NCBI GenBank assembly: GCA_964631145.1 | Contig: CAZVXT010000001.1 | Coordinates: 52,969-116,968 of the forward strand | Reading direction: 5' to 3' | Origin: an uncultured Candidatus Saccharibacteria bacterium | Lineage (GTDB): Bacteria > Patescibacteriota > Doudnabacteria > UBA920 | DNA: 64,000 bases | Part shown: one piece after another, positions 3,971 through 52,677 of the stretch | Position numbering within the stretch: the stretch's first letter is position 1 | How the letters are laid out: each line of letters starts with the position of its first letter | Notes under the pieces: generated by a model | Databases searched by the model: none | Seen by the model: only the letters and a program-made list of their open reading frames with translations | Told to the model about the DNA's origin: nothing | Translations under genes and position numbers: made by a program

Positions 3971-5911
3971 ATGAATTTATCATCCTTATCGCACGAATTA
4001 AATATCTCAATCGGGGAGTTGAGGCAGAAAGCTGCCGCAGCCGGTTTACCAATACCTGTTCGTGCAAATAAAATTGATAATCACTTTGCAAAACAGATTT
4101 TAGATAAACTTAAATCCGTAAAAACACCTGAAACAAAAGCAACAGAAAATTCTAATAAATCTATTACTCTACCAAGCTTTATTAAAGTTCGTGATTTTGC
4201 AGAAAACCTCAAACTTCCAGTTACCACAGTTATCAAAACACTTATTCAAAACGGTGTTATGGCAACAATTAATGAAGAAATAGATTTTGACACAGCAAGT
4301 ATTATAGCTAACGATTTAGGGTATGAAGTTAATTCAGCTGAAAATTCAAGTACAGAATTTGGTGCTGGCTACTTACAAGAACAACTTACTCACGAAAAAG
4401 AGAGCGGGGCTATATCCAGACCACCGATAGTTGCTGTAATGGGACACGTAGACCATGGGAAGACCACATTATTAGATGCAATTAGAAGTGCCAATGTAGT
4501 AGATACAGAATCTGGTGGTATAACTCAACATATTGGAGCTTATCAAATTAAGCACGACAATAAAGTTATAACCTTCTTAGACACTCCTGGACACGAAGCT
4601 TTTGTAGAAATGCGTGCCCGCGGTGCTAATGTAACAGATATTATCGTTTTAGTTGTAGCAGCTGACGACAGCGTAAGACCTCAAACTATTGAGGTTATTA
4701 ACCGTGCCAAATTTACCAATACTCCAATTATCGTTGCTATTAACAAGATCGATAAAGAAAATGCTAATGTTACCAAAACCAAGCAAGAATTAGCAGAGCA
4801 TGGAATTTTAACTGAAGACTGGGGAGGAAAAACAATAGCTGTAGAAATTTCAGCAAAACAAAACATCGGTATTGATAAGTTATTAGAAATGATCTTACTT
4901 CAAGCAGAAATAGAAAACTACACAGCAAATCCAAACGGTAAAACACTAGGAACTGTTATCGAATCCCATATTGCCCAAGGACAAGGATCAGTTGCGACTG
5001 TTATTGTACAAAACGGCAGCCTTAAAGTTGGAGATGTGATTTCTGCAGGAATTGGATATGGCAAAGTTAAGTCTTTAGAAGATGCGAAAGGTAAGAAGCT
5101 AAAGTTTGCAGGACCTGGTACACCTGCTGTAGTATCTGGTTTTTCAGACTTGCCAGAAGCAGGTGATATTTTGCAAACACCGCAGTCTTTGGAAGAAGCA
5201 AGAAATATTGCGATAACGGCACAAAAGCTTAAGCATAGTAGAAAACTAACCGCACGCAGCAAAATCCAAGGTGACACTGATTCAAAAACATTAAACCTTA
5301 TTCTTAAAGCTGATGTTGCCGGCTCATTAGAAGCTATAAAACAATCTTTAGCAAAACTAAAGAATGATGAAGTACAAATTAATATCCTTAATGAAGGTAT
5401 TGGTGAAGTAAATGAAAATGATGTGTTGCTTGCAGAAAACACCAAATCAACAGTCATTGGTTTTAGAGTAAAAACCAATCCTAAAGCTATCAACTTGGCA
5501 AAACAGAAGTCAATAACAATTGATAACTATGATGTTATTTATGAACTTCTAGAAACAATCACCAGCGCAGTTGTAGACATGTTCACCCCTGAAATGGAAA
5601 AAGTTACATTTGGCTCAGGTGAAGTATTAGCAATATTTAGAACTGAAAAGGGGCAAATGATTATCGGTGGTAAAGTTACAGAAGGTGAAGTTCGCAAAAA
5701 TAAGCAAATAGCAATCTTAAGAAAAGATAGCGAAGGACAACTACAAGAAGTAGCAAGGGGAGAAATACTAGAACTTCAACAAAATAAAATAGATACCAAA
5801 GAAGTTACCAAAGGCAATGAGTTTGGTATGAAGATCAAAACCAACTTCAAGCTTACAGCCGGCGATACCCTAGAAAGTTTCGAAGAAAATCTAAAAAAGA
5901 AAAGTTTATAA
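3971..5911 (+). CDS. infB: Translation initiation factor IF-2 (short form)
   Basis: G-domain motifs [23 protein letters not shown] and NKID; 646 aa. Confidence 0.95.
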
Positions 5912-7915: not shown

Positions 7916-7933
7916 TATAATACCTAAGTATTT
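7916..7933 (+). promoter_or_regulatory. Conserved 18-nt promoter-like motif TATAATACCTAAGTATTT upstream of the tRNA locus (a second identical copy is at 19230..19247)
   Basis: Exact 18-nt repeat containing a TATAAT hexamer, found upstream of two separate tRNA loci. Confidence 0.5.
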
Positions 7934-8042: not shown

Positions 8043-8062
8043 GGGCGATTAGCTCAGTTGGC
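8043..8062 (+). pseudogene. Orphan duplicate of the tRNA-Val 5' end (19-20 nt identical to the start of the downstream tRNA-Val); the tRNA-like sequence then degenerates
   Basis: GGGCGATTAGCTCAGTTGG repeated at 8043 and 8160; no T-arm or acceptor 3' half in the following ~100 nt. Confidence 0.5.
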
Positions 8063-8159: not shown

Positions 8160-8236
8160 GGGCGATTAGCTCAGTTGGTTAGAGCGTCTCGTTTACACCG
8201 AGAAGGCCAAAGGTTCGAATCCTTTATCGCCCACCA
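8160..8236 (+). tRNA. tRNA-Val(TAC)
   Basis: Anticodon loop TTTACAC, T-arm GGTTCGAATCC, CCA end. Confidence 0.9.
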
Positions 8237-10616: not shown

Positions 10617-10679
10617 GTTTTATATAATAACTTGAAGAAATTATTTGTTTAAGTTAAAATATGAAAGTATTTAAAAATT

Positions 10680-11540: not shown

Positions 11541-12767
11541 TTATTCAGGTTGAACTTCTGCAACTGGAGCAGATTCTTCTACAACTTCTTCTGCTTTAAC
11601 TTCTTTTTTAGGTGCTTCTGTTAATTGCTTAATAGAAAGACCTAAGCGATGTTCTGCAGGTTCGATAGAGATAACTTTAAATTCTCTTTCTTCACCTTCT
11701 TTAACTACTTGATCAGCAGATTTAACTTCTTCATGAGCAAGCTCGATAAGATGAGCCAAACCTTGAATATCATTATCAAGTTCTACAAACACACCAAATG
11801 GCATAATTTTAGAAACTTTTCCCTTTACAACTTGTCCTAGTTGATATTTTTTAACTGCTTCTTGCCATGGATCTACTTGAAGTTGTTTGATAGACAAACT
11901 AACACGACCCTTTTCGATAGCAATAATTTTTGCAGTTACAGTATCACCAACCTTAAATAAATCTTTTGGATTTTCAATACGTTGCCATGCAAGTTCTGAA
12001 ATATGAACCAAACCTTCTAATTCACCAAACTTAATGAATACACCAAAGTCTACAATACCAGTAATGCTTCCAGTAACAGTATCACCAATTTTAAGACTTG
12101 AAAGTCTGTTAGCCATTTCTTCTTCGAAGACAGCCTTTTCAGAAACGATCAATTTTTCTTCTTCTGGATCAGCTGTAATAACAGCAACATTAAAGAATTG
12201 ACCTACATAACTATTAAGGACACCCAAGATACGATTCTTATCACCCTCTTCAACACGAGGATAGTGCTCAATTGATAATTGAGATACTGGCAAGAAACCA
12301 ACAACATTGTTAATTTCTACCATCAAACCACCTTTATTAGCAGATAAAATCTTAGTAGCAACAATTTCACGGCTTTCCATAAGATCTTTAAGCTTCTGCC
12401 AAACGCGTTCGTGACCAGCTTGACGAAGAGACATTTCGACATTACCTTCACGGTTTTCTGTTTCTACAACAGAAGCAGCAATTAGATCACCAGGTTTTAG
12501 AGAGTTTAATGTAGCTTGATCATCATATAATTCACGACCTCTTACTACACCTACACCATAACCTGTTAAATCGATGTAAACTTCATTCTTAGAGACAGAG
12601 ATGATTTTACCTTCAACCATATCACCTGGCTTTAGCACACGAATCTCTGCGCCACTACCAAGCAAATCTGTCATGGTTTTTGCATTGTTATCACCAGTCA
12701 CGTCGGACGGAGTAACAGTTAAGTCGTCAGTCTTAACAACTTCTTCTTGCTTTATGTCTTCTGACAT
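11541..12767 (-). CDS. rpsA: 30S ribosomal protein S1
   Basis: Multiple S1 repeats (..GDMVEGKIISV.., GDTVTGSITGIVDFGVFIKF, GQVVKGKVSKIMPFGVFVEL). Confidence 0.9.
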   Translation of the reverse strand: MSEDIKQEEVVKTDDLTVTPSDVTGDNNAKTMTDLLGSGAEIRVLKPGDMVEGKIISVSKNEVYIDLTGYGVGVVRGRELYDDQATLNSLKPGDLIAASVVETENREGNVEMSLRQAGHERVWQKLKDLMESREIVATKILSANKGGLMVEINNVVGFLPVSQLSIEHYPRVEEGDKNRILGVLNSYVGQFFNVAVITADPEEEKLIVSEKAVFEEEMANRLSSLKIGDTVTGSITGIVDFGVFIKFGELEGLVHISELAWQRIENPKDLFKVGDTVTAKIIAIEKGRVSLSIKQLQVDPWQEAVKKYQLGQVVKGKVSKIMPFGVFVELDNDIQGLAHLIELAHEEVKSADQVVKEGEEREFKVISIEPAEHRLGLSIKQLTEAPKKEVKAEEVVEESAPVAEVQPE

Positions 12768-13043
12768 TTAATTAATTTCCTATCAATGTATAAAAATAAA
12801 AACAACGTTTAGACGTTGCAATAAAATCTAAAAAGTATTCAAATACATTAATTATTAAACACGCCAATTACTTAGACTTATTGGGGGTTAAGATTTAAGA
12901 AAGAATAGCTTAAACATTTAAATTATTCTTGAAAGGCGTGTACGCCAATAAGTGTTAAGATTATAGCGTTTTTATCTAGCTTTGACAAGTCCTAAATTTA
13001 ATGATATTTTTATATATAAAATTACAAATTAGGAGGAAAAATT

Positions 13044-13724
13044 ATGAGTTGGTTTGAAGAGTTAACCCAAAGTAATACGCAAATTGCTGAATTAAAAACA
13101 ATTCAATCAAAAATTAATAGTATAACTTATACAAAACAAGTTTTAGAAGAAAAAGAGCAAAGCCTTAATGGAGACAGCCAAAATTTAATAAAAAATTTGG
13201 CTGAATTAATTAAAAATGGCGAGCTGTATTTAGACAAAACTTTGAATTACATAATTTCTAGGAATACGAATTTTGAACTTTGGAAACCTTTATACGATAG
13301 GCTAGGAGCTTTAGATGAGTTATTAAGAAGGCACATTGATGATGAGTTGATGTTCATACAGATCGCTGATCAAAATGATGTTAGCTGTTTGCATTTTAAA
13401 AACCACGGTGGAGAGCTGGCATATCAAAACGGTATAGCCACTCTATTTATTAAAGCTGATGAAGCTTATTATAATAACACTTACAACACAAACCAAGAAC
13501 CTAGTTCTAAATTTAATCCTAGCAATATCCTTTCGGAACACGACAATTATATTAAACTGTGGGGTTTTGACATTAGATTCTGGAAATATGATCCGTTAGA
13601 ATTTGAGCCAATAATTAAAAATGAAAGTATTTTATATATATTATTTGGAAAAGACCAAATCATGAATTGTGCCGAACAAAACAAGATTGTTCCTTTGGTT
13701 GATGATTTGAGAATGCGAAAATAA
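13044..13724 (+). CDS. Hypothetical protein (accessory-class, perfect SD, own terminator)
   Basis: 226-aa ORF; AGGAGGAAAAATTATG; no recognisable domain. Confidence 0.5.
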   Translation: MSWFEELTQSNTQIAELKTIQSKINSITYTKQVLEEKEQSLNGDSQNLIKNLAELIKNGELYLDKTLNYIISRNTNFELWKPLYDRLGALDELLRRHIDDELMFIQIADQNDVSCLHFKNHGGELAYQNGIATLFIKADEAYYNNTYNTNQEPSSKFNPSNILSEHDNYIKLWGFDIRFWKYDPLEFEPIIKNESILYILFGKDQIMNCAEQNKIVPLVDDLRMRK

Positions 13725-13726
13725 TA

Positions 13727-13760
13727 AAAACCTCGAGAAATTTCTCGAGGTTATTTTTTT
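13727..13760. terminator. Bidirectional rho-independent terminator between convergent genes
   Basis: AAAAACCTCGAGAAATTTCTCGAGGTTATTTTTTT palindrome. Confidence 0.7.
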
Positions 13761-14280
13761 ATTTAGAGACAGACTGTGCGTTGTTTTGATTGATTAAATC
13801 AAGCACTAATTCTTCAATTAATTGGTGTGTTTTTTCTTGAGGCAAATGAACACATGTTTGATAATTTGTATCATTTATTAAAAACTGTTTATTACTGCCT
13901 AAAATTTTTGTTCCGTTTTTAGAATAAACAGAAACGTTTACATAGTTTAGGCAGTTAGTTTCAGTCCAAAACCAAATATCAATCTTTAATGACAACACTA
14001 TTCCATTTGGGTCATATTGAGCACCTGAAGAAAATAATAATGATTTAAATTGATTTAAAATTTCAGACTTTTGATCTAAAAAGCTTTGACCAGGACCTGA
14101 ATTATCTCTTTCAAAGTCAATTTGGGAAATTAATAATGGGGCTTTTGTAAAGCCAGCTTTTAGAGTATTTTGCCTAACCATAAACACACTATCATATGCC
14201 GAAATTGCCAGATAGATAAATAGTGGCATAAAGGCAAAAAGCACAATTGCAATCCGTTTGAAAGTAAAAACTTCTTTCAT
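13759..14280 (-). CDS. Hypothetical N-terminally anchored/secreted protein
   Basis: 173 aa with an N-terminal hydrophobic segment; GGAGGA SD. Confidence 0.45.
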   Translation of the reverse strand: MKEVFTFKRIAIVLFAFMPLFIYLAISAYDSVFMVRQNTLKAGFTKAPLLISQIDFERDNSGPGQSFLDQKSEILNQFKSLLFSSGAQYDPNGIVLSLKIDIWFWTETNCLNYVNVSVYSKNGTKILGSNKQFLINDTNYQTCVHLPQEKTHQLIEELVLDLINQNNAQSVSK

Positions 14281-14412
14281 ATTTCAATCCTCCAATTTTT
14301 GATTTAAACTTATCTACAATTTTAAAAACAAGCAGATAATTATGTTAATTAAACCAAAGAATTGCGTATTTGTCAAGATGCAATGCTTAAACAAAACTGT
14401 TATAATTTATGC

Positions 14413-15045
14413 ATGCAAATTCAATATTTTGGGCTTTCTAGCTATAAAATTACTACAAAGGAAGCAGTAGTGATTACCGATCCTTTTGACAAAGAATCAG
14501 GACTAACTCCACCGCGAGGTGCTGCCGATATAATTATTCTTGCAGAAGAGAAGAACAAGCTTTACACAGCAACCTCTGGATTTTCTGGAGAACCATTTAT
14601 TATCCCTGGACCAGGAGAATACGACACTAAAGGTGTAACAGTTACAGGAATACCGCTTAAACAAGATGAGGGAAGATATGTTACGGTTTATCTAATTGAA
14701 AGTGAGGGTATAAAAATTTTAAACCTTACCCACATTAGAGAGTGGAATATCAAGCACGATGATTTGGAAGATTTAGGAGAAATAGACATCTTAATTTTAC
14801 CTGTAGGTAGCAATAGCGTAATGCTTCCTAAACTAGCTTCGCAAATTGCACATGATATTGAACCAAAAATTGTAATCCCAAGTCACTACGAAACAAAAGG
14901 GCTTGCACTACCTTACGAAAAAGTTGATGAATTTCTAAAAATCTATGGCGTAAAAGATGTAGAAGCAATAGATAAGCTAAGCTTGAAGAAAAAAGACTTA
15001 ACACAAGAAAAAACCCAAGTGGTAATCCTAGACCCATTGAGGTAA
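14413..15045 (+). CDS. MBL-fold (UPF0173-like) protein with a degenerate metal-binding motif
   Basis: Overall pattern (ITDPF..., ...VIPSHYET) resembles UPF0173 metallo-hydrolases, but the HxHxDH position reads ILAEEKN; start chosen at 14413 because TATAAT lies at -12..-7. Confidence 0.4.
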   Translation: MQIQYFGLSSYKITTKEAVVITDPFDKESGLTPPRGAADIIILAEEKNKLYTATSGFSGEPFIIPGPGEYDTKGVTVTGIPLKQDEGRYVTVYLIESEGIKILNLTHIREWNIKHDDLEDLGEIDILILPVGSNSVMLPKLASQIAHDIEPKIVIPSHYETKGLALPYEKVDEFLKIYGVKDVEAIDKLSLKKKDLTQEKTQVVILDPLR

Positions 15046-15219
15046 ATATAAATTCTAGTATAGGGTATGCTTTTGAAAGTATTATAGTTTTTTCACTAGT
15101 CCTCGCTCTATAAATAAGTTTATAATAAAGAGCTGTGGAATTCGTTCAAAAACTATAATACTTGCAACAACAAATATAAACACTGCAATAAATTTCTAAC
15201 AAAAAACTAAAACAACAAA

Positions 15220-15435
15220 ATGAAAAAAGTTATTGAAAAAATTCGTCAAAAACCCGAACACGAACAAAATCGAATAATATGGGTTGTTGCAGCCATAGCA
15301 ATTATTATTCTATTGGGTTTATGGATCTTATTAGGAAATTCTAAAAGAGCCAATTCTCCAGGGGGAGTGATCAATAACATTAACCAAGAAGTAAACGATA
15401 ATAAAAATCTGTTTCCAAACTTATTTAATAAATAA
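15220..15435 (+). CDS. Small membrane protein immediately upstream of gyrA
   Basis: 71 aa with a single TM helix; 8-nt gap to gyrA. Confidence 0.35.
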
Positions 15436-15443
15436 CAGTTAAC

Positions 15444-17912
15444 ATGCCAAAAGAAGAAACTTTGACAAACAATAATGTAGGAGTGATCAAACAGCGTTTC
15501 CTTGAACAAGAAATGCAAGAATCATACCTCGATTACGCAATGAGCGTTATTGTTGCACGTGCTTTACCAGATGTTAGAGATGGAATGAAGCCAGTTCATC
15601 GCCGTATTTTGTATGCCATGCAATCCATGGGATTGCGACATAATGGAAAAACTACTAAGTCAGCAAAAGTTGTAGGTGAAGTTCTTGGTAAATATCACCC
15701 TCATGGAGATACCGCTGTATACGATTCTATGGTTCACATGGCGCAAGAATTCTCTATGCGTTATCCATTAGTAATTGGTCAGGGTAACTTTGGATCCATG
15801 GACGGCGATAGTCCCGCTGCGATGCGTTATACAGAAGCCAAGCTTAGCGCTTTAGCAGAAGAGATCTTAACAGATATAGAAAAAGATACAGTAGACTTTA
15901 GAGACAACTACGATACTACCGAGAAAGAACCTGTAGTACTTCCTGGTAAAGTACCTAATCTTTTACTAAATGGAACATTAGGTATTGCGGTTGGTATGGC
16001 GACTGACATGCCTCCTCATAACTTAAATGAAGTAGCAGATGCGATCGTTGCAACCATAGAAAATAACGATATCACCATAGATGAGTTAACCGATATTATC
16101 AAAGGACCTGACTTTCCTACCGGTGGAATTATTTACGACCGCAAAGCTATCAAAGAAGCTTACGCATTAGGAAAAGGGGGTATAGTAACCAGAGCAAGAG
16201 CAGAAATTGATGAAATGAAAAATGGACAACCGCGCATAGTTGTTACTGAAATTCCTTACCGAGTAAACAAAGCTACTTTATTAGAAAAAATCGCCGACTT
16301 AGTAAGAGATAAAAAGGTTGAAGGCATTAAAGATGTTCGTGATGAAAGCGATAAAGATGGAGTTCGAGTTGTAATAGAACTTAAGAAAGAAGCTTTAGCA
16401 AATAAAATCTTAAACCAACTTTACAAGTATACTCAATTGCAAGATACCTTCCATATGAACATGCTTGCATTAGTTGACGGAATAGAACCTCATGTACTTA
16501 ATCTAAAAACTATTTTAGAAAAATACATTGAGCACCGCCAAGTAGTAGTTCGTAGAAGAACAGAATATGAACTTCGCAAAGCAAAAGAACGAGCTCATAT
16601 TTTGGAAGGTTTAAAGATTGCTTTAGATCATATTGATGAAGTAATCGCCTTAATTAGAAAAAGTGGAGATAAGGTAGAAGCGAAAGCAAACTTAATTAAG
16701 AAGTTTAAGCTTACCGAAATACAAGCAGATGCAATCTTAGAAATGCGCCTTCAAACTTTAGCAGGATTAGAACGCAAAAAGATTGAAGATGAATTAAAAG
16801 AAAAGCTTAAACTGATCGCTGAATTAGAAGGAATATTAAAATCAGAAAAGAAAATTTTAGGCATTATCAAAACCGAAGTCCTCGAACTTAAAGACAAATT
16901 TGGAGATGAACGCCGAACAAGTATTGTGGCTCAAGGTATTGGGCAATTTAACGCTGAAGATCTGATTCCAGAAAATAGCGTTATTATCTCTACTACTAAA
17001 TCAGGATACATTAAACGTCAATCTCCAGACACCTATAGACAACAAAGTCGTGGCGGTAAAGGGGTTATCGGACAGACACTAAAAGAAGAAGATGTTATCG
17101 ATACTGTAATATCTGCCTCTAGTCATGATGATATGATGTTCTTTACCAACAAAGGAAGATTATTTGTAACCAAAGCTTACGAATTGCCAGAAAGCAGCCG
17201 TACCAGCAAAGGACAAGCCTTAGTAAACTTCCTACAATTGGGTAATGATGAACAAGCTACAGCCATATTAGCAGTTCCAAAAAACTCTACAGCAAAATAC
17301 TTGGTGATGGCAACCAAAAACGGACTTATCAAAAAAGTTGACCGCGATGCATTTGATAAAGTTAGGAAGAGTGGAATTATCGCTATTGGACTCAAAGATA
17401 CTGATGAACTAAAATGGGTTAAAACAAGTAGTGGTAATGACGAAATAATGCTTTCTACAGAAGATGGGCAAGCTATACGCTTTAAAGAATCTGATATCAG
17501 AGCCATGGGAAGAACAGCTAGCGGCGTTACAGGTATCAGACTAAAAAAGAGTGATCATGTAATTTCTATGGATATTATCGATAAAGAAATGGCTGGTCAG
17601 GGACGCGATGTACTTGTAGTTATGGAATTAGGGTTAAGCAAAAAAACCCCAGTGAAAGACTACAAGATTCAAAAAAGAGCAGGTAGTGGAATTAAGACTG
17701 TAAAGATAACTCCGAAAACAGGAAAAATAGTATCAATGGCAATTCTTAGCCCAGAAGATAATAATGACAAAGATTTATTAATTATTTCTAAGCAAGGGCA
17801 AACCATTAGAACATCTCTAAAATCAATCTCTACACTAGGTAGAACAACCCAAGGCGTTAGGGTCATGAAATTAGCAGACGGTGATACGATTGCCAGCGCA
17901 ACTGTTGTATAA
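15444..17912 (+). CDS. gyrA: DNA gyrase subunit A
   Basis: [26 protein letters not shown] and the active-site region; 822 aa. Confidence 0.95.
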
Positions 17913-19132: not shown

Positions 19133-19295
19133 AAATCCTCCTAATATTTAATATATTAAAGTAACAGCTTTGTTAAATTTAGTCAATTTAAAGGGTTTTT
19201 TAAAGATTGATCAAATTGTTAAGATAAACTATAATACCTAAGTATTTGATTTATAAGCAAGAATTTATTCCCAGCAATACAAATAAATAATTAAT

Positions 19296-19372
19296 GCGCG
19301 TGTAGCTCAGTTGGTTAGAGCACAAAGCTTATACCTTTGCGGTCCCTGGTTCGAGTCCAGGCACGCGCACCA
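19296..19372 (+). tRNA. tRNA-Ile with UAU anticodon (reads AUA), preceded by the conserved 18-nt motif at 19230..19247
   Basis: Canonical cloverleaf; anticodon loop CTTATAC; T-arm GGTTCGAGTCC; CCA end. Confidence 0.75.
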
Positions 19373-19385
19373 CTAAACACATTTT

Positions 19386-19652
19386 ATGGATATTGAAAAA
19401 CAAAAAGAAGTTTTTGAAGATAAATATCAATCCAAGCTTGGTATGGGATATGATGAATGGTTAGATCAAGCCCCAGAAACAGAAGATCAAGCATATGAAA
19501 AACTTGCAGAAATAGATAAAGAATTAAAGCAATTAGCAGATGCATTAAGTAACAGCCAAGGTGGTCATAGAGAAGAATTAGAAGACGAAAGAGATAGATT
19601 AAAATTAGAATACGATATCATTGAAGAAATGTTTGGTTTAGAATTAGATTAA
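19386..19652 (+). CDS. Hypothetical acidic protein
   Basis: 88 aa, D/E-rich. Confidence 0.4.
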   Translation: MDIEKQKEVFEDKYQSKLGMGYDEWLDQAPETEDQAYEKLAEIDKELKQLADALSNSQGGHREELEDERDRLKLEYDIIEEMFGLELD

Positions 19653-19693
19653 TAATTAACACCTTTTACCATAAAGGTGTTTTTGATAAAAAT

Positions 19694-23208: not shown

Positions 23209-26019
23209 ATGAAAATTTATAATTTTAACGGTACCGGGCAGGGTCATACCAAAAGCCGGTCATCAAAAATTTTAGGGAAAATATTATTTTACTTAAAAAC
23301 AGGTAATTGGTTTACTTGGGCTTTTAGAATTGCAGCTGCGGGTGTTTTGTTAGTTGCATTTTTATTTATCTATTATAGTAGAAGCTTACCTGATCCAAAT
23401 AGATTATTAGGTCGCAATGTTCCAGAGAGTACCAAGATTTATGCAGCAGATGGTAGCATGTTATACGAAGTTCATGGCGAAATTAAACGCACCCTAGTAA
23501 ACCTTGATCAAATTTCACCTGATCTAAAACACGCAACTATTGCAGCGGAAGATAAAAATTTTTACAAGCACGCAGGAGTGTCAGTTATGGGACTAGCAAG
23601 ATCGGTAATAGTAGATATAATCCATATGCAAAAAAAGCAAGGTGGAAGTACAATCACTCAACAATTTGTTAAAAATGCCGTATTAACTAGGGACAAATCT
23701 TTTACTAGAAAAATTAAAGAAATAATTATTGCAATAGAACTTGAAGCAAGGTTTTCAAAGGATGATATTCTCAAACTCTATTTAAATGAAATTCCTTATG
23801 GTCGAAATGCCTACGGTATTGAAGCAGCTAGCCAGACTTACTTTAACAAACATGCCAACGAGCTTAGCCTTGCCGAAAGTGCATACCTTGCTGCTTTACC
23901 TCAAGCACCAAGTTACTATAACCCAAGCGGTCCAAATTTTGACGCATTACAAGCAAGACAAAAAAATATCTTAAAGTTAATGGAAGAGGAAGGTTACATA
24001 ACCGCTGATCAACACGAACAAGCATTAAACGAAGAAGTAGCATTTCAAACTGTAAAAACAGCTATAGTTGCTCCTCACTTTGTACAATATGTAGAAGATT
24101 ATTTAGGACAAAAATATGGTGAAAGTACTCTTCAAGAAGGTGGTCTAAAAGTATATACAACTCTTGATCCAAAACTTCAAGCAATTGCAGAAAAAGCAGT
24201 AACAGACGGAGCGGCAAAAAATATCTCTGCTGGAGGTTATAACGCCGCATTGGTAGCAATGAATCCAAAAAATGGATACATATTAGCAATGGTTGGTAGT
24301 AAAGATTATTTCGGCGAATCTCAACCTAAAGGATGTGTTCCAGGAAAAAGCTGTTTATTTGAACCTAATGTTAACGTCGCAACAACATTACAGCAACCAG
24401 GAAGTAGCTTTAAACCTTACGCATACGTTACTGCTTTTGGACCAGACTTCAAATACTCTCCAGCTAGTATGTTAGTAGACGTTGTTACCAACTTTGGAGG
24501 AGGATACACTCCACAGAACTTTAACTTAGGTCAAAATGGACCAGTCTCTATGAGAAAAGCTTTAGCAGGAAGTTTGAACATCCCTGCTGTTAAAACAATC
24601 GCTCTAGTTGGTGCCGATAACGTAGTAAAGACTGCAAGAGATTTGGGTATAACCGCTCCTCTAAAAGATTGTGGTTTAGCGTTAGTTCTTGGTGGATGTG
24701 ATGTAAAATTAATCGATCACACTGCCGCTTATGCAACACTTGCAAACGGCGGAGTAAAAGTAGATAAAACAGCAATCTTAAAAGTTGAAAGTAAAGAAGG
24801 TCAAGTTTTAGAAGTACATGAAGAAAAGAAGACTCAAGTTTTGGATCCTCGAGCAGTTTATCAATTAATTGATATCATGACTGATAATTCTGCTAGAGCT
24901 TATGTATTTGGTGCTAATTCTGCATTAACCTTAAAAGATAGACTAGTGGCTGCAAAAACTGGTACAACTCAAGATTTTCGTGATGGATGGACCATGGGCT
25001 TTACCCCAAGCTTAGTAGCAGGAGTATGGACAGGAAACAATAATAACGCTCCTATGAAGCGTGATGCCGTACAAACCGCAGGTCCTATATGGAATCAATT
25101 TATGAGAGAAGCTCTAGCCGGAACACCAGTAGAAAAATTTGAAGAGCCAGAAGGTATTAAACACATAGCAGTAGATAGCGTTACCGGAAAGCTTCCAACT
25201 CAATATTCACCATCAACAAAAACAGAGACTTTTGCAGATTATAATGCACCGACAAAATATGATGACTTACATATTGGTATTAAAATCGATTCGTCTACAG
25301 GTCAGCCAGCGACAGATTCCACACCTGAAGAATTAATAGTTACAGAAATATACCAAGATTTACACAGTGAAAGACCAAAGGATCCTAATTGGGAAAATCC
25401 AGTTATTGCTTGGGCATTAGCAAATAGTTATAAATATCCGCCAGGTAGCGGTGTTAATAATAATCAAAGTCAAAATCAAACTAGTGTAAGCTTCGCTTCT
25501 CCACAAAATGATGCGATTATCAAACAACTACCTATCAGTATTAGTCTGGGAACACCACAAGATACAACTAAAGTAGAAATACTATTAGATAACCAGTTGG
25601 TAAAGACTTTAACATCAAGTCCTTATAACACCACTCTTGGACAAAGCATTGGTGATGGAAATCACACCTTAACAGCAAAAGCATATCTTCAAAGCGGGCA
25701 GACAGTAACTAGTAGTATAAATATAAAAGTAGCAATTACTGCAGACCTGGTAATAACAACCCCTGATTCTGGACTAACAGTACAATTTCCATTAACAATA
25801 GAAGCAGACAGCTCAACACTTTTTGGATCAGTAACATTTTGGTATCAAGGATCTAGTGGAAGTGCAAAGCAAATTGGTGCAGCTGAAATATCTGACATCG
25901 GAGGTAATTACAGATATTCAATTTCTTGGGATAGCCCGCCAAAATCTGGAAAGTACTCAGTATATGCAAAAAGTAATACTGGCGTAACTAGTAGTAAAAT
26001 ATCTATTACAGTTCCTTAA
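23209..26019 (+). CDS. Class A penicillin-binding protein (glycosyltransferase + transpeptidase) with a ~250-aa C-terminal Ig-like extension
   Basis: GT51 motifs (AAEDKNFYKHAGV, GGSTITQQ), transpeptidase SxxK/KTG (GSSFKP, KTGTT); TATAAT at -12..-7. Confidence 0.9.
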   Translation: MKIYNFNGTGQGHTKSRSSKILGKILFYLKTGNWFTWAFRIAAAGVLLVAFLFIYYSRSLPDPNRLLGRNVPESTKIYAADGSMLYEVHGEIKRTLVNLDQISPDLKHATIAAEDKNFYKHAGVSVMGLARSVIVDIIHMQKKQGGSTITQQFVKNAVLTRDKSFTRKIKEIIIAIELEARFSKDDILKLYLNEIPYGRNAYGIEAASQTYFNKHANELSLAESAYLAALPQAPSYYNPSGPNFDALQARQKNILKLMEEEGYITADQHEQALNEEVAFQTVKTAIVAPHFVQYVEDYLGQKYGESTLQEGGLKVYTTLDPKLQAIAEKAVTDGAAKNISAGGYNAALVAMNPKNGYILAMVGSKDYFGESQPKGCVPGKSCLFEPNVNVATTLQQPGSSFKPYAYVTAFGPDFKYSPASMLVDVVTNFGGGYTPQNFNLGQNGPVSMRKALAGSLNIPAVKTIALVGADNVVKTARDLGITAPLKDCGLALVLGGCDVKLIDHTAAYATLANGGVKVDKTAILKVESKEGQVLEVHEEKKTQVLDPRAVYQLIDIMTDNSARAYVFGANSALTLKDRLVAAKTGTTQDFRDGWTMGFTPSLVAGVWTGNNNNAPMKRDAVQTAGPIWNQFMREALAGTPVEKFEEPEGIKHIAVDSVTGKLPTQYSPSTKTETFADYNAPTKYDDLHIGIKIDSSTGQPATDSTPEELIVTEIYQDLHSERPKDPNWENPVIAWALANSYKYPPGSGVNNNQSQNQTSVSFASPQNDAIIKQLPISISLGTPQDTTKVEILLDNQLVKTLTSSPYNTTLGQSIGDGNHTLTAKAYLQSGQTVTSSINIKVAITADLVITTPDSGLTVQFPLTIEADSSTLFGSVTFWYQGSSGSAKQIGAAEISDIGGNYRYSISWDSPPKSGKYSVYAKSNTGVTSSKISITVP

Positions 26020-26024
26020 ATAAA

Positions 26025-26056
26025 AAATAACTAGCCAATGCTAGTTATTTTTTTAT
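26025..26056. terminator. Bidirectional terminator between the PBP gene and jag
   Basis: AAATAACTAGCCAATGCTAGTTATTTTTTT. Confidence 0.65.
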
Positions 26057-26520
26057 ATTTTTATCTTGATCTTCCTATTTGGTTCAACGCCTACACTTTC
26101 TGTATTTAAATGAGGAAACTGCTCTTGTATATAATTATGAACAAATTTTCTTTCAAATCTTGGTAAAGATGGCAATAAAACATATTCTAAACCATGTTTT
26201 AGTTCGGATACAGAATCTTTTACTATTTGCTTTAGTTGATACTTGCGGTTAGCTAAGTAATCATCTATATCAAGAGTAAATCTAACCGGTAAATCTTTAA
26301 ATTGTTTATTTACTATTGCAAATACTATATGTTGTAATGCTTGTAAATTTAAACCCTGCTTACCAATCAAAAGCTTTCTATCATAAGTAGAAATATTAAA
26401 CACCAAACCATTAGCTAAACTATTTTCATAGTTAATTGTTGCATTAAAACCTGCCACTTTTAATAAATCACCTATAAGTTGTTTAATAAATTCAATTTGC
26501 TCTTGATTTGGATTTTGCAT
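26053..26520 (-). CDS. khpB: Jag/KhpB (KH + R3H RNA-binding protein)
   Basis: Position downstream of yidC plus a C-terminal R3H-like region. Confidence 0.75.
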   Translation of the reverse strand: MQNPNQEQIEFIKQLIGDLLKVAGFNATINYENSLANGLVFNISTYDRKLLIGKQGLNLQALQHIVFAIVNKQFKDLPVRFTLDIDDYLANRKYQLKQIVKDSVSELKHGLEYVLLPSLPRFERKFVHNYIQEQFPHLNTESVGVEPNRKIKIKI

Positions 26521-26536
26521 AAGCTTTTTATATTAA

Positions 26537-27232
26537 TTATTCTTTGTGAAAATAATGAACGTAATATTGTTGAGCAATAGCAAACAAAGTTGTAACAATC
26601 CAATAAAGAGGAAGACCTGCCGGCAAATTCCATGCGATAAATACTGAAACCGCTGGTAATAAATAAGTTAACTGGGCATTCATTGCTTTTACAGTTATAT
26701 CAGCGTTTGTATTATTACCTTGCCATTTGATTGTTAAGTAAGACTGTACAAACTGAGCCACACCAGCCAATATTGCCAATACAGGGTTATGAGCACTTAA
26801 GTTAAGAACCCCAAGAAACATAGGATTAATAGCACCAGGATGAGAAACAAAGCTATACAATCCATCAAGATTACCTTTTAATGCTTTATCAAAAACTCTG
26901 TACAAAGCAATTAAAATTGGTAGCTGAATAAGCAAAGGTAAACACGATGATAAAGGATTAATATTATGTTCTTTATACAAATCCATCATTGCTTTTGCTT
27001 GTGCTTCGCGATCATCTTTATACTTTTCTTTCAAATCATTAAGCTTTGGCTGAAGAGAACTTAAAGCTTTTTGTCCTTTTAGTGATTTATGCATAAAAGG
27101 AGCTAAAACTATTCTAATTAGTATAGTAACTAATACAATCACCAAACCTATATCATGGATAGGTAAAACATTATATAAACCTATTAAAAGGTTTAAAATT
27201 GGTCGGTAAATTAATTCTGTGTATATAAACAT
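26537..27232 (-). CDS. yidC: Membrane protein insertase YidC (short form)
   Basis: Multi-TM 231-aa protein in the conserved rnpA–yidD–yidC–jag context. Confidence 0.85.
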   Translation of the reverse strand: MFIYTELIYRPILNLLIGLYNVLPIHDIGLVIVLVTILIRIVLAPFMHKSLKGQKALSSLQPKLNDLKEKYKDDREAQAKAMMDLYKEHNINPLSSCLPLLIQLPILIALYRVFDKALKGNLDGLYSFVSHPGAINPMFLGVLNLSAHNPVLAILAGVAQFVQSYLTIKWQGNNTNADITVKAMNAQLTYLLPAVSVFIAWNLPAGLPLYWIVTTLFAIAQQYYVHYFHKE

Positions 27233-27235
27233 ATT

Positions 27236-27466
27236 TTATATTTTATCTATTTTTGGTTGTGCAAACGGATTGCATTTAATAATTCTTATAAAACCCTTAG
27301 GTAAACCTTTAAATAAACCATAAGATTGCAGACTTTGAATCATATAAGTACTACATGAAGGATAAAACCTGCAAAACCCATAAGGATACTTATATTTTAG
27401 CAAACCATGGTCTGGAGAAAGAGTTTTTTGATAAATTTTTATAAAAAAGATTAAAATTTTAACCAT
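27236..27466 (-). CDS. yidD: Membrane protein insertion efficiency factor YidD
   Basis: C..YPSCS..C motif (CRFYPSCSTY); 76 aa. Confidence 0.85.
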   Translation of the reverse strand: MVKILIFFIKIYQKTLSPDHGLLKYKYPYGFCRFYPSCSTYMIQSLQSYGLFKGLPKGFIRIIKCNPFAQPKIDKI

Positions 27467-27797
27467 TTATTAATATTTTTGCTTTAATTAAAGCGGTTTT
27501 TAGTTCGTTTTTTATATCGATACTAGAATCTAATAAAATAGCTGGTTTTATAAGTAAAATATAATAACCTGGCTTTATATTAGGTAATTCTTTATACCAA
27601 TAATCTCGACATAATCTTTTAATTCGATTTCTTTTTACAGCACTTTTAGTGACTTTATTAGAAACAATTACCGTAAACTTTAAATCCTTACTTGGTAAAT
27701 ACTTTAAATTAAAAAGTGGCGAAAAAAAAGATCGCCCCTTTTTTAAAACTTTCTCAATGTCAAGAGTTTTATTAAGGCGATGTTCTTTTTTTAACAT
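27459..27797 (-). CDS. rnpA: RNase P protein component
   Basis: Basic 112-aa protein in the rpmH–rnpA context. Confidence 0.85.
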   Translation of the reverse strand: MLKKEHRLNKTLDIEKVLKKGRSFFSPLFNLKYLPSKDLKFTVIVSNKVTKSAVKRNRIKRLCRDYWYKELPNIKPGYYILLIKPAILLDSSIDIKNELKTALIKAKILING

Positions 27798-52281: not shown

Positions 52282-52677
52282 TTACGCTTTTTTCTTTTTT
52301 GCTTTTGTTATATTTGGTTTTTGACCATAGTGCAGCTTTATGTTTTTAGAAGGTTCTGATTTATCTAACTTCAAAAAATTTTCAACCACTTTATTATTAG
52401 GCAAAACTATTACTGGGATATTTAATCCAAGTGCAAGGCTTTGTCCCAAAGCTGTTCCAACTCTAATCCCTGTAAAAGACCCTGGTCCGCTGGCGGTAAT
52501 AATTTTTGATATTTGATTAAACTTAAGTTTGTTGGATTTTAAAAACCTTTCTAGTAACTCTAAAGTTTTGTAGTTCTCATTAAAGGCTATCTCAAAAGTT
52601 TGTTTAATGATTTTTTCTTTGGATACGATTTTAAATTCTGCCTGTCCAAAATTAGTTGTATTGATAACTAAAATCAT
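52282..52677 (-). CDS. tsaB: tRNA t6A biosynthesis protein TsaB (N-terminal-domain-only short form)
   Basis: ITASGPGSFTGIRVGTALGQSLALGLNIPVIVL is the TsaB/YeaZ signature; only 131 aa. Confidence 0.75.
   Translation of the reverse strand: MILVINTTNFGQAEFKIVSKEKIIKQTFEIAFNENYKTLELLERFLKSNKLKFNQISKIITASGPGSFTGIRVGTALGQSLALGLNIPVIVLPNNKVVENFLKLDKSEPSKNIKLHYGQKPNITKAKKKKA

Follow-up and report, generated by a model that had tools for sequence, protein, structure and literature searches.

The stretch of DNA analysed here (the window, 64 kb in full) is the dnaA/gyrA chromosomal origin region of a Patescibacteria (CPR) genome with 33% GC, and GC content within it ranges from 30 to 38%. The gene order begins with infB, rbfA, nrnA, two tRNA clusters, rpsA, gyrA, a gene for an HD-domain protein and a gene for tRNA-Ile(UAU), and continues with an ORF of 88 aa, rsmI, yebC, ruvC, tyrS, the gene for PBP1A and jag-yidC-yidD-rnpA-rpmH; further on lie dnaA-dnaN-recF, ruvB, pilB, polA, uvrB, murE, ruvA and rpoB. 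The window sequence is also found in the Logan assemblies SRR12712864 and SRR12712853. The features around the tRNA-Ile(UAU) gene, and those elsewhere in the window that bear on it, are as follows.

7916–7933, + strand: second exact copy of an 18-nt signature, 8 nt upstream of tRNA-Leu(GAG)
10655–10672, + strand: third site of the signature (TAAAATATGAAAGTATTT), 8 nt ahead of a tRNA-Cys / tRNA-Leu(UAA) pair
11541–17912, mixed strands: rpsA (−) ... MBL-fold hydrolase (+) and gyrA (+), a conserved CPR block; in the window, rpsA has neither tilS nor ftsH beside it
19207–19235, + strand: sigma-70-type promoter, −35 TTGATC, 17-nt spacer, −10 TATAAT, 10/12 consensus matches
19230–19247, + strand: 18-nt tRNA-promoter signature (TATAAT + N5 + AGTATTT), identical to 7916–7933 and related to 10655–10672
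19248–19295, + strand: predicted precursor leader on the 5' side of the tRNA, some 50 nt long, which RNase P would cut away
19296–19372, + strand: tRNA-Ile(UAU), 77 nt, CCA encoded (ARAGORN, Rfam, direct reading)
19330–19332, + strand: anticodon TAT (U34 A35 U36), followed by A37, invariant in 14/14 aligned CPR UAU tRNAs
19386–19652, + strand: acidic ORF of 88 aa, beginning 13 nt after the 3' end of the tRNA
19658–19681, strand not assigned: hairpin formed by the palindrome AACACCTTT...AAAGGTGTT, with a run of T's after it, which probably terminates the tRNA-orf88 unit ahead of rsmI (19694)

Seven tRNA genes were called across the window by ARAGORN, none of them with a CAU anticodon. A preliminary description of this DNA had read a canonical cloverleaf with the anticodon loop C-T-T-A-T-A-C and the anticodon UAU, and ARAGORN, the Rfam model RF00005 (72.1 bits, where the gathering score is 29; only one other tRNA of the window scores higher) and direct reading agree on it; the isotype family likewise agrees, as ARAGORN assigns Ile, with anticodon tat, at exactly 19296–19372 on the + strand. 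The acceptor stem is GCGCGTG/CACGCGC with A as the discriminator, the D stem GCTC/GAGC, the anticodon stem CAAAG/CTTTG enclosing the loop CTTATAC, and the T stem CCTGG/CCAGG, with the variable loop CGGTC. Set beside the E. coli identity set, the tRNA body has A73, A37, C4-G69 and U12-A23, with A29-U41 in place of C29-G41, an E. coli IleRS identity element, and with C instead of A at position 38. C stands at position 38 in the window clade and also in a number of further CPR UAU tRNAs, the rest having A or U there, and no universal anticodon-loop signature was seen among the CPR UAU tRNAs. The D arm is identical to that of the CPR Ile(GAU) and Ile2(CAU) tRNAs, and the nearest neighbours of the window tRNA are other CPR Ile(UAU) tRNAs: the body of the UAU tRNA in the window clade is up to 85% identical to UAU tRNAs linked to ftsH (see later), and the anticodon arm is the same in the UAU tRNAs of loci L002 and L052.

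Relatives were gathered in a GyrA-anchored scan with one genome per GTDB species, which returned only MAGs of Patescibacteria/CPR; the source is accordingly an uncultured, ultra-small bacterium of the CPR. The closest six (L002–L007, from the MAGs CAZRKK01, CAZXPB01, CAZSSN01, CAZYMS01, CAZDEP01 and JAHFJH01; GyrA identity 72–82%, one labelled Candidatus Doudnabacteria) all carry tRNA-Ile(tat) beside gyrA, and the gene is found at eight more genome loci and 13 metagenome loci of more distant CPR lineages, giving 27 UAU tRNA-Ile genes in total from the sampling around gyrA and ftsH. In a rough neighbour-joining tree of GyrA the UAU loci fall into at least four clusters. An alignment of 19 CPR tRNAs (14 UAU, four CAU and one GAU) retains cloverleaf pairing in 100% of 399 cells, with compensatory changes on both sides at 13 of the 21 pairs and a covariation score of 0.72 vs 0.06–0.09 for slid controls. 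The gene at 19296–19372 is a real, conserved and canonical tRNA gene. The covariation contradicts a pseudogene.

A side observation concerns the naming of the sampled genomes. Records titled 'uncultured Bdellovibrionales' or 'Gammaproteobacteria' account for twelve loci (L008, L009, L011, L013–L015, L017, L018, L023, L025, L026 and L032), which have GyrA sequences 60–63% identical to that of the window and the CPR-type gene order around gyrA; for these TPA assemblies the organism names given at NCBI look unreliable.

The promoter predicted for tRNA-Ile(UAU) lies 61 nt upstream of the gene, and all six relatives, L002–L007, keep a TATAAT box ahead of the orthologous tRNA. An 18-nt motif had been noted upstream of both this tRNA and another tRNA locus, and exact copies (TATAATACCTAAGTATTT) do start at 19230 and 7916, with as many matches in none of 100 shuffled sequences. 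Relaxed to TAWAAT-N5-RGTATTT, the pattern has three matches in 64 kb (7916, 10655 and 19230) vs 0.1 expected, and all three precede tRNA transcription units, one per unit, with none elsewhere in the window; the pattern recurs in relatives, ahead of tRNA-Cys in L002 and L003 and of tRNA-Ile in L002. The motif is predicted to comprise a −10 box and start region, that is, a tRNA promoter core, and the relaxed pattern looks like a clade-specific promoter and start-site element for stable RNAs. Since the signature is shared by all tRNA units of the window, tRNA-Ile(UAU) appears to use the genome's own tRNA-type promoter. Downstream, no terminator was found between the tRNA and the 88-aa ORF, and the two are probably co-transcribed; the ORF itself (19386–19652) has no Pfam or NCBIfam match.

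These surroundings bear on the proposal that a phage or mobile element introduced the gene, as an accessory or foreign tRNA outside the core decoding set. Phages often carry tRNAs for rare codons, the gene sits between divergent genes, and its leader is longer than in the relatives, where the −10 box lies 22–44 nt from the tRNA. Against such an origin, six species share the position by gyrA, the gene has the tRNA-promoter signature of the host, and the flanking genes (for the HD-domain protein, rsmI, yebC and ruvC) provide no integrase or repeat context. A phage database gave generic tRNA similarity only (at most 78% full-length, to tRNA-Lys genes), and the window tRNA found no match in E. coli genomes. 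Synteny, a host-type promoter and the generic level of similarity to phage tRNAs contradict a phage or mobile origin, and a place outside the core decoding set is very improbable.

Elsewhere in the window, a 19-nt stretch at 8044–8062 (GGGCGATTAGCTCAGTTGG) is identical to the 5' end of tRNA-Val(UAC) (8160–8178) and then diverges from it. It is located 116 nt upstream of tRNA-Val, between tRNA-Leu(GAG) and tRNA-Val, and neither ARAGORN nor Rfam makes a call there; it is probably a truncated duplicate or remnant of tRNA-Val.

AUA codons had been described as abundant in this DNA, and the count bears this out: in 29 window genes (12,278 codons), 281 of the 1052 Ile codons (27%) are AUA, or 22.9 per 1000 codons, the share being lower in rpsA (3%) and rpoB (9%). 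The meaning of the codon was examined in gyrA, by comparison with 62 distant homologues. Positions occupied by AUA in the window gene hold 55% Ile, 19% Val, 14% Leu and 2% Met in the homologues, the corresponding figures being 61% Ile for ATT columns, 58% Ile for ATC columns and 54% Met for ATG columns, and two of the AUA codons stand in columns that are Ile in 62/62 and 60/62 sequences. Since the AUA columns are like those of ATT and ATC, and unlike those of ATG, the comparison indicates that AUA means Ile in the source genome and that an efficient reader of this codon would be needed.

A changed meaning, with the UAU tRNA charged with an amino acid other than Ile or AUA reassigned (e.g., to Met, as in many mitochondria), can be weighed on the same data. 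Some IleRS identity elements differ from those of E. coli (A29-U41 and C38). Changes of the code are known in CPR, namely UGA to Gly, and CGA/CGG in Absconditabacteria (PMC8629427). On the other side stand the Ile-dominated AUA columns of GyrA, with 2% Met and indistinguishable from ATT/ATC columns, the presence of A73, A37, C4-G69 and U12-A23, the nearest neighbours, which are other Ile(UAU) tRNAs, and the ORFs, which are intact under table 11. The column comparison contradicts AUA reassignment, and a changed meaning of any kind has next to no likelihood.

The usual bacterial route to AUA is a tRNA-Ile2 with a CAU anticodon, the C34 of which is turned to lysidine (LAU) by the enzyme TilS. Neither TilS nor IleRS was found in the window by NCBIfam searches of about 50 ORFs combined with motif scans, and a contig extension of about 1.8 kb (RNase HII, DUF5665) holds no ftsH, tilS, ileS or CAU tRNA. 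TilS is likewise lacking from the loci of L002–L007 as from the window, and IleRS from the window and 160 related loci, where only two ValRS-like ORFs were seen.

Among other genes related to tRNA maturation, rnpA lies at 27459–27797. The rpmH-rnpA-yidD-yidC-jag group (26053–27797) adjoins the PBP1A gene (23209–26019), not the common mnmE-mnmG-rsmG. Genes of MnmE, MnmG or MnmA type often sit next to jag/yidC, and no ORF resembling these was found in the 64-kb window, including beside jag/yidC. An ORF of 131 aa on the − strand (52282–52677) has a match to the TsaD/TsaB family (PF00814) in precomputed Pfam annotations; possibly it encodes a TsaB, truncated or minimal, for the t6A37 pathway, which serves ANN-reading tRNAs, this one among them.

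The relatives provide a locus at which tilS and the UAU tRNA can be followed together. In loci that carry tilS, the genes rpsA, cmk, tilS and ftsH follow one another on one strand, with an MBL-fold hydrolase gene and gyrA divergent beyond rpsA. The window has the rpsA-hydrolase-gyrA part of this locus. In the window clade ftsH lies away from rpsA, which means that the diagnostic arrangement is broken up there. At 14 genome loci (L015–L017, L020–L025, L027, L028, L034, L035 and L042) a PP-loop ORF bearing VGVSGGPDS is found between rpsA/cmk and ftsH; six of the 14 ORFs were scanned with TIGR02432 (TilS N-terminal domain) and all six match it (150–191 bits, cutoff 93.6), the others being called as TilS by the SGGxDS motif together with tblastn. 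These loci are mainly from Moranbacteria-like Parcubacteria, plus one Saccharibacteria chromosome (L042), and most of them fall into a single Moranbacteria-like cluster of the rough GyrA tree. None of the 14 has a tat tRNA. In three (L034, L035 and L042) a CAU tRNA gene adjoins the 3' end of ftsH; that of L034 has the anticodon arm GCAGGCGACTCATAATCGC, the same as in an E. coli tRNA-Ile, with a CAT anticodon according to the PGAP annotation, and the best E. coli matches of that in L042 are likewise tRNA-Ile. By these likenesses the three tRNAs appear Ile2-like, and would be substrates of TilS.

The TilS proteins of CPR are short (about 315–365 aa) and type II-like, lacking the second C-terminal domain, the exception being that of L042 (Saccharibacteria), with 452 aa and the TilS C-terminal domain. 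In a TilS profile search of a set of 5.8 billion proteins, which gave 7232 matches, all named entries among the best 120 are from Moranbacteria, Parcubacteria, the Patescibacteria group or an unclassified bacterium.

At seven genome loci (L019, L047, L051, L052, L059, L063 and L072) tilS is missing and ftsH adjoins rpsA. The gap between the two genes is only 18–198 bp in L019, L047 and L063, and in the others it is filled by TruD (L072), an RNA-metabolising MBL hydrolase (L052 and L059) or proteins of unknown function; no remnant of TilS was detected in the gaps by tblastn. The TruD gene of L072, for a tRNA pseudouridine-13 synthase, lies at 4217–5611 (− strand), between rpsA and ftsH. The tRNA-Ile(tat) gene is present at all seven, on the strand of ftsH and downstream of it by 7 to about 1100 nt, in the slot that the CAU tRNA occupies in L042. 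Several of the tilS-less loci lack cmk, too, between rpsA and ftsH, and gene order thus leaves relocation of tilS possible as an alternative to its loss.

An independent, FtsH-anchored scan of metagenome contigs served as replication. At 13 metagenome loci tRNA-Ile(tat) follows ftsH, often with tRNA-Val(GAC) after it, and none of them has tilS; together with the seven genome loci, the tRNA is found 0–2.2 kb downstream of ftsH. At about 40 metagenome loci tilS lies upstream of ftsH, and a tat tRNA is present at none. When the count is confined to the 53 loci whose sequence extends 2.5 kb or more to either side of ftsH, the two genes are distributed as follows.

tilS present: UAU tRNA present at 0 loci, absent at 32
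tilS absent: UAU tRNA present at 14 loci, absent at 7

The UAU tRNA thus occurs at 0/32 loci with tilS and 14/21 without (Fisher p = 4.8e-8, uncorrected for phylogeny), and the two genes are mutually exclusive at the conserved rpsA-tilS-ftsH locus in the relatives. The link between a UAU tRNA and loss of tilS, which the preliminary description had put forward, is borne out in the relatives by these counts.

Two further groups of loci were seen in the scans. Eight loci (L008, L012, L091, L095, L108, L113, L135 and L144) lack tilS upstream of ftsH and, except for L012, where the flank is too short to score, also lack a UAU tRNA within 2.5 kb downstream; in these either tilS or the UAU tRNA may lie elsewhere. 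In six metagenome loci with tilS (L100, L115, L117, L133, L153 and L162), CAU tRNA genes are found directly upstream of tilS, sometimes two or three together and including initiator-like ones, and these are possibly Ile2 substrates clustered with their enzyme.

The exclusion bears directly on the proposal that the window tRNA is a redundant decoder, tilS and tRNA-Ile2(CAU) being kept elsewhere in the genome and the UAU tRNA adding capacity for a frequent codon. Co-occurrence is possible, since tilS and a TAT tRNA are found together in Lactobacillus plantarum and L. casei (PMC3575796); moreover, with the rpsA-ftsH linkage broken in the window clade, tilS could adjoin ftsH elsewhere, and AUA at 23 per 1000 codons would reward extra capacity. 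The combination seen in the lactobacilli was present at none of the 53 loci with enough flank. In addition, the UAU gene is stable in at least seven species of the window clade, and very similar tRNAs (best 85% identity, with the anticodon arms of L002 and L052 identical) are found in lineages that lack tilS. On this evidence a redundant role is unlikely, though it retains some weight.

The explanation we favour, with a probability of roughly 0.78, is that the gene encodes a functional minor tRNA-Ile whose encoded UAU anticodon reads AUA by pairing of U34 with A, and that it replaces tRNA-Ile2(CAU) together with TilS. Going by the relatives, the source genome, covered here by the 64-kb window and about 2 kb more, has likely lost tilS, and would have lost tRNA-Ile2(CAU). 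Transcription would begin at the tRNA-type promoter, and RNase P would trim the leader of the precursor, the CCA end being already encoded. An A37 that follows U36 is a normal substrate for t6A formation, and A37 of this tRNA would be converted to t6A. IleRS would then charge the tRNA, and U34 would pair with the A of AUA. AUG would be avoided in the manner of Mycoplasma mobile and the Bacillus subtilis ΔtilS suppressor, that is, by an unmodified U34 with an adapted IleRS and ribosome.

The suppressor, a tRNA-Ile1(G34U), was reportedly described by Fabret in 2011. With unmodified U34, which binds AUA strongly and AUG weakly, it decodes AUA with little misreading of AUG and allows near-normal growth (Kohrer 2013, PMC3919564). 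It is a laboratory mutant of the GAU tRNA, whereas the CPR gene is a long-established, separate gene with a body sequence of its own. The closer counterpart is the tRNA-Ile2(UAU) of M. mobile, which provides lysidine-independent decoding of AUA (Taniguchi et al. 2013, PMC3575796): its unmodified U34 binds AUA strongly and AUG weakly, its IleRS has a Trp-to-Arg change, and its ribosome is discriminating (PMC3575796). More generally, an IleRS that accepts U34 has either Trp to Arg/Lys in the C-terminal Zn-binding domain or is of type 2 (eukaryote-like), and Bifidobacterium and Neorickettsia use the eukaryote-type enzyme (PMC3575796). M. mobile and the window share a genomic TAT Ile tRNA, a small AT-rich genome and frequent AUA, along with the absence of tilS, in the latter case from the window's relatives. 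They differ in lineage, the window belonging to Patescibacteria, which are unrelated to the Mollicutes. The M. mobile paper assigns the lysidine-free route to nine species in three clades (PMC3575796), whereas the CPR trait spans many lineages.

Under the name tRNA-Ile3(UAU), a tRNAscan-SE 2.0 survey reported UAU tRNA-Ile in 17 genomes; in Bifidobacterium, Neorickettsia and the archaea Nanoarchaeum equitans and Korarchaeum cryptofilum it replaces the CAU tRNA and TilS/TiaS (PMC8450103). Several of these organisms are reduced or symbiotic, like CPR. Compared with the canonical tRNA-Ile2(CAU) and TilS, the job is the same and, in CPR, so is the neighbourhood by ftsH (L034, L035 and L042), but the canonical tRNA has a C34 that needs lysidine, whereas the window tRNA has T there and needs no TilS. 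Genomic tRNA-Ile(TAT) alongside tilS, as in L. plantarum and L. casei, was unseen in the CPR loci examined. The window tRNA probably belongs to a type of AUA decoding that is already known, that of M. mobile, Bifidobacterium and Neorickettsia; among the open-access papers searched, none linking CPR/Patescibacteria with lysidine, tilS or UAU tRNA-Ile was found.

The genomic UAU route is stated in the field to be exceptional, and the preliminary description had also called it rare. This stands for cultured bacteria (17 genomes, PMC8450103) and fails for Patescibacteria, where sampling around gyrA and ftsH gave 27 genes; within CPR the UAU tRNA-Ile is apparently common rather than rare. It is somewhat better than an even bet that lysidine has been given up for good by a large, phylogenetically scattered part of Patescibacteria (at least four GyrA clusters). 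There, the rpsA-cmk-tilS-ftsH locus would have lost tilS, and a UAU tRNA would stand where tilS-bearing relatives keep tRNA-Ile2(CAU). TilS is regarded as an essential enzyme that nearly all bacteria have and that is confined to bacteria (PMC11947777); its use as a marker and its proposal as a drug target rest on this view. If the loss is real, TilS would be neither near-universal nor essential across Bacteria. For annotation and completeness pipelines, a missing tilS or tRNA-Ile2(CAU) should not be scored as a gap in such MAGs. If whole CPR lineages run on a UAU tRNA, the census of AUA-decoding systems would change, and CPR would offer many natural replicates of how IleRS, U34 modification and the ribosome prevent misreading of AUG. 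The data would also be relevant to the proposal of an ancestral AUA reader with an unmodified UAU anticodon, and TilS-free decoding would rank as a major strategy among bacteria, possibly ancestral, and no longer as an oddity seen in about 17 cultured genomes.
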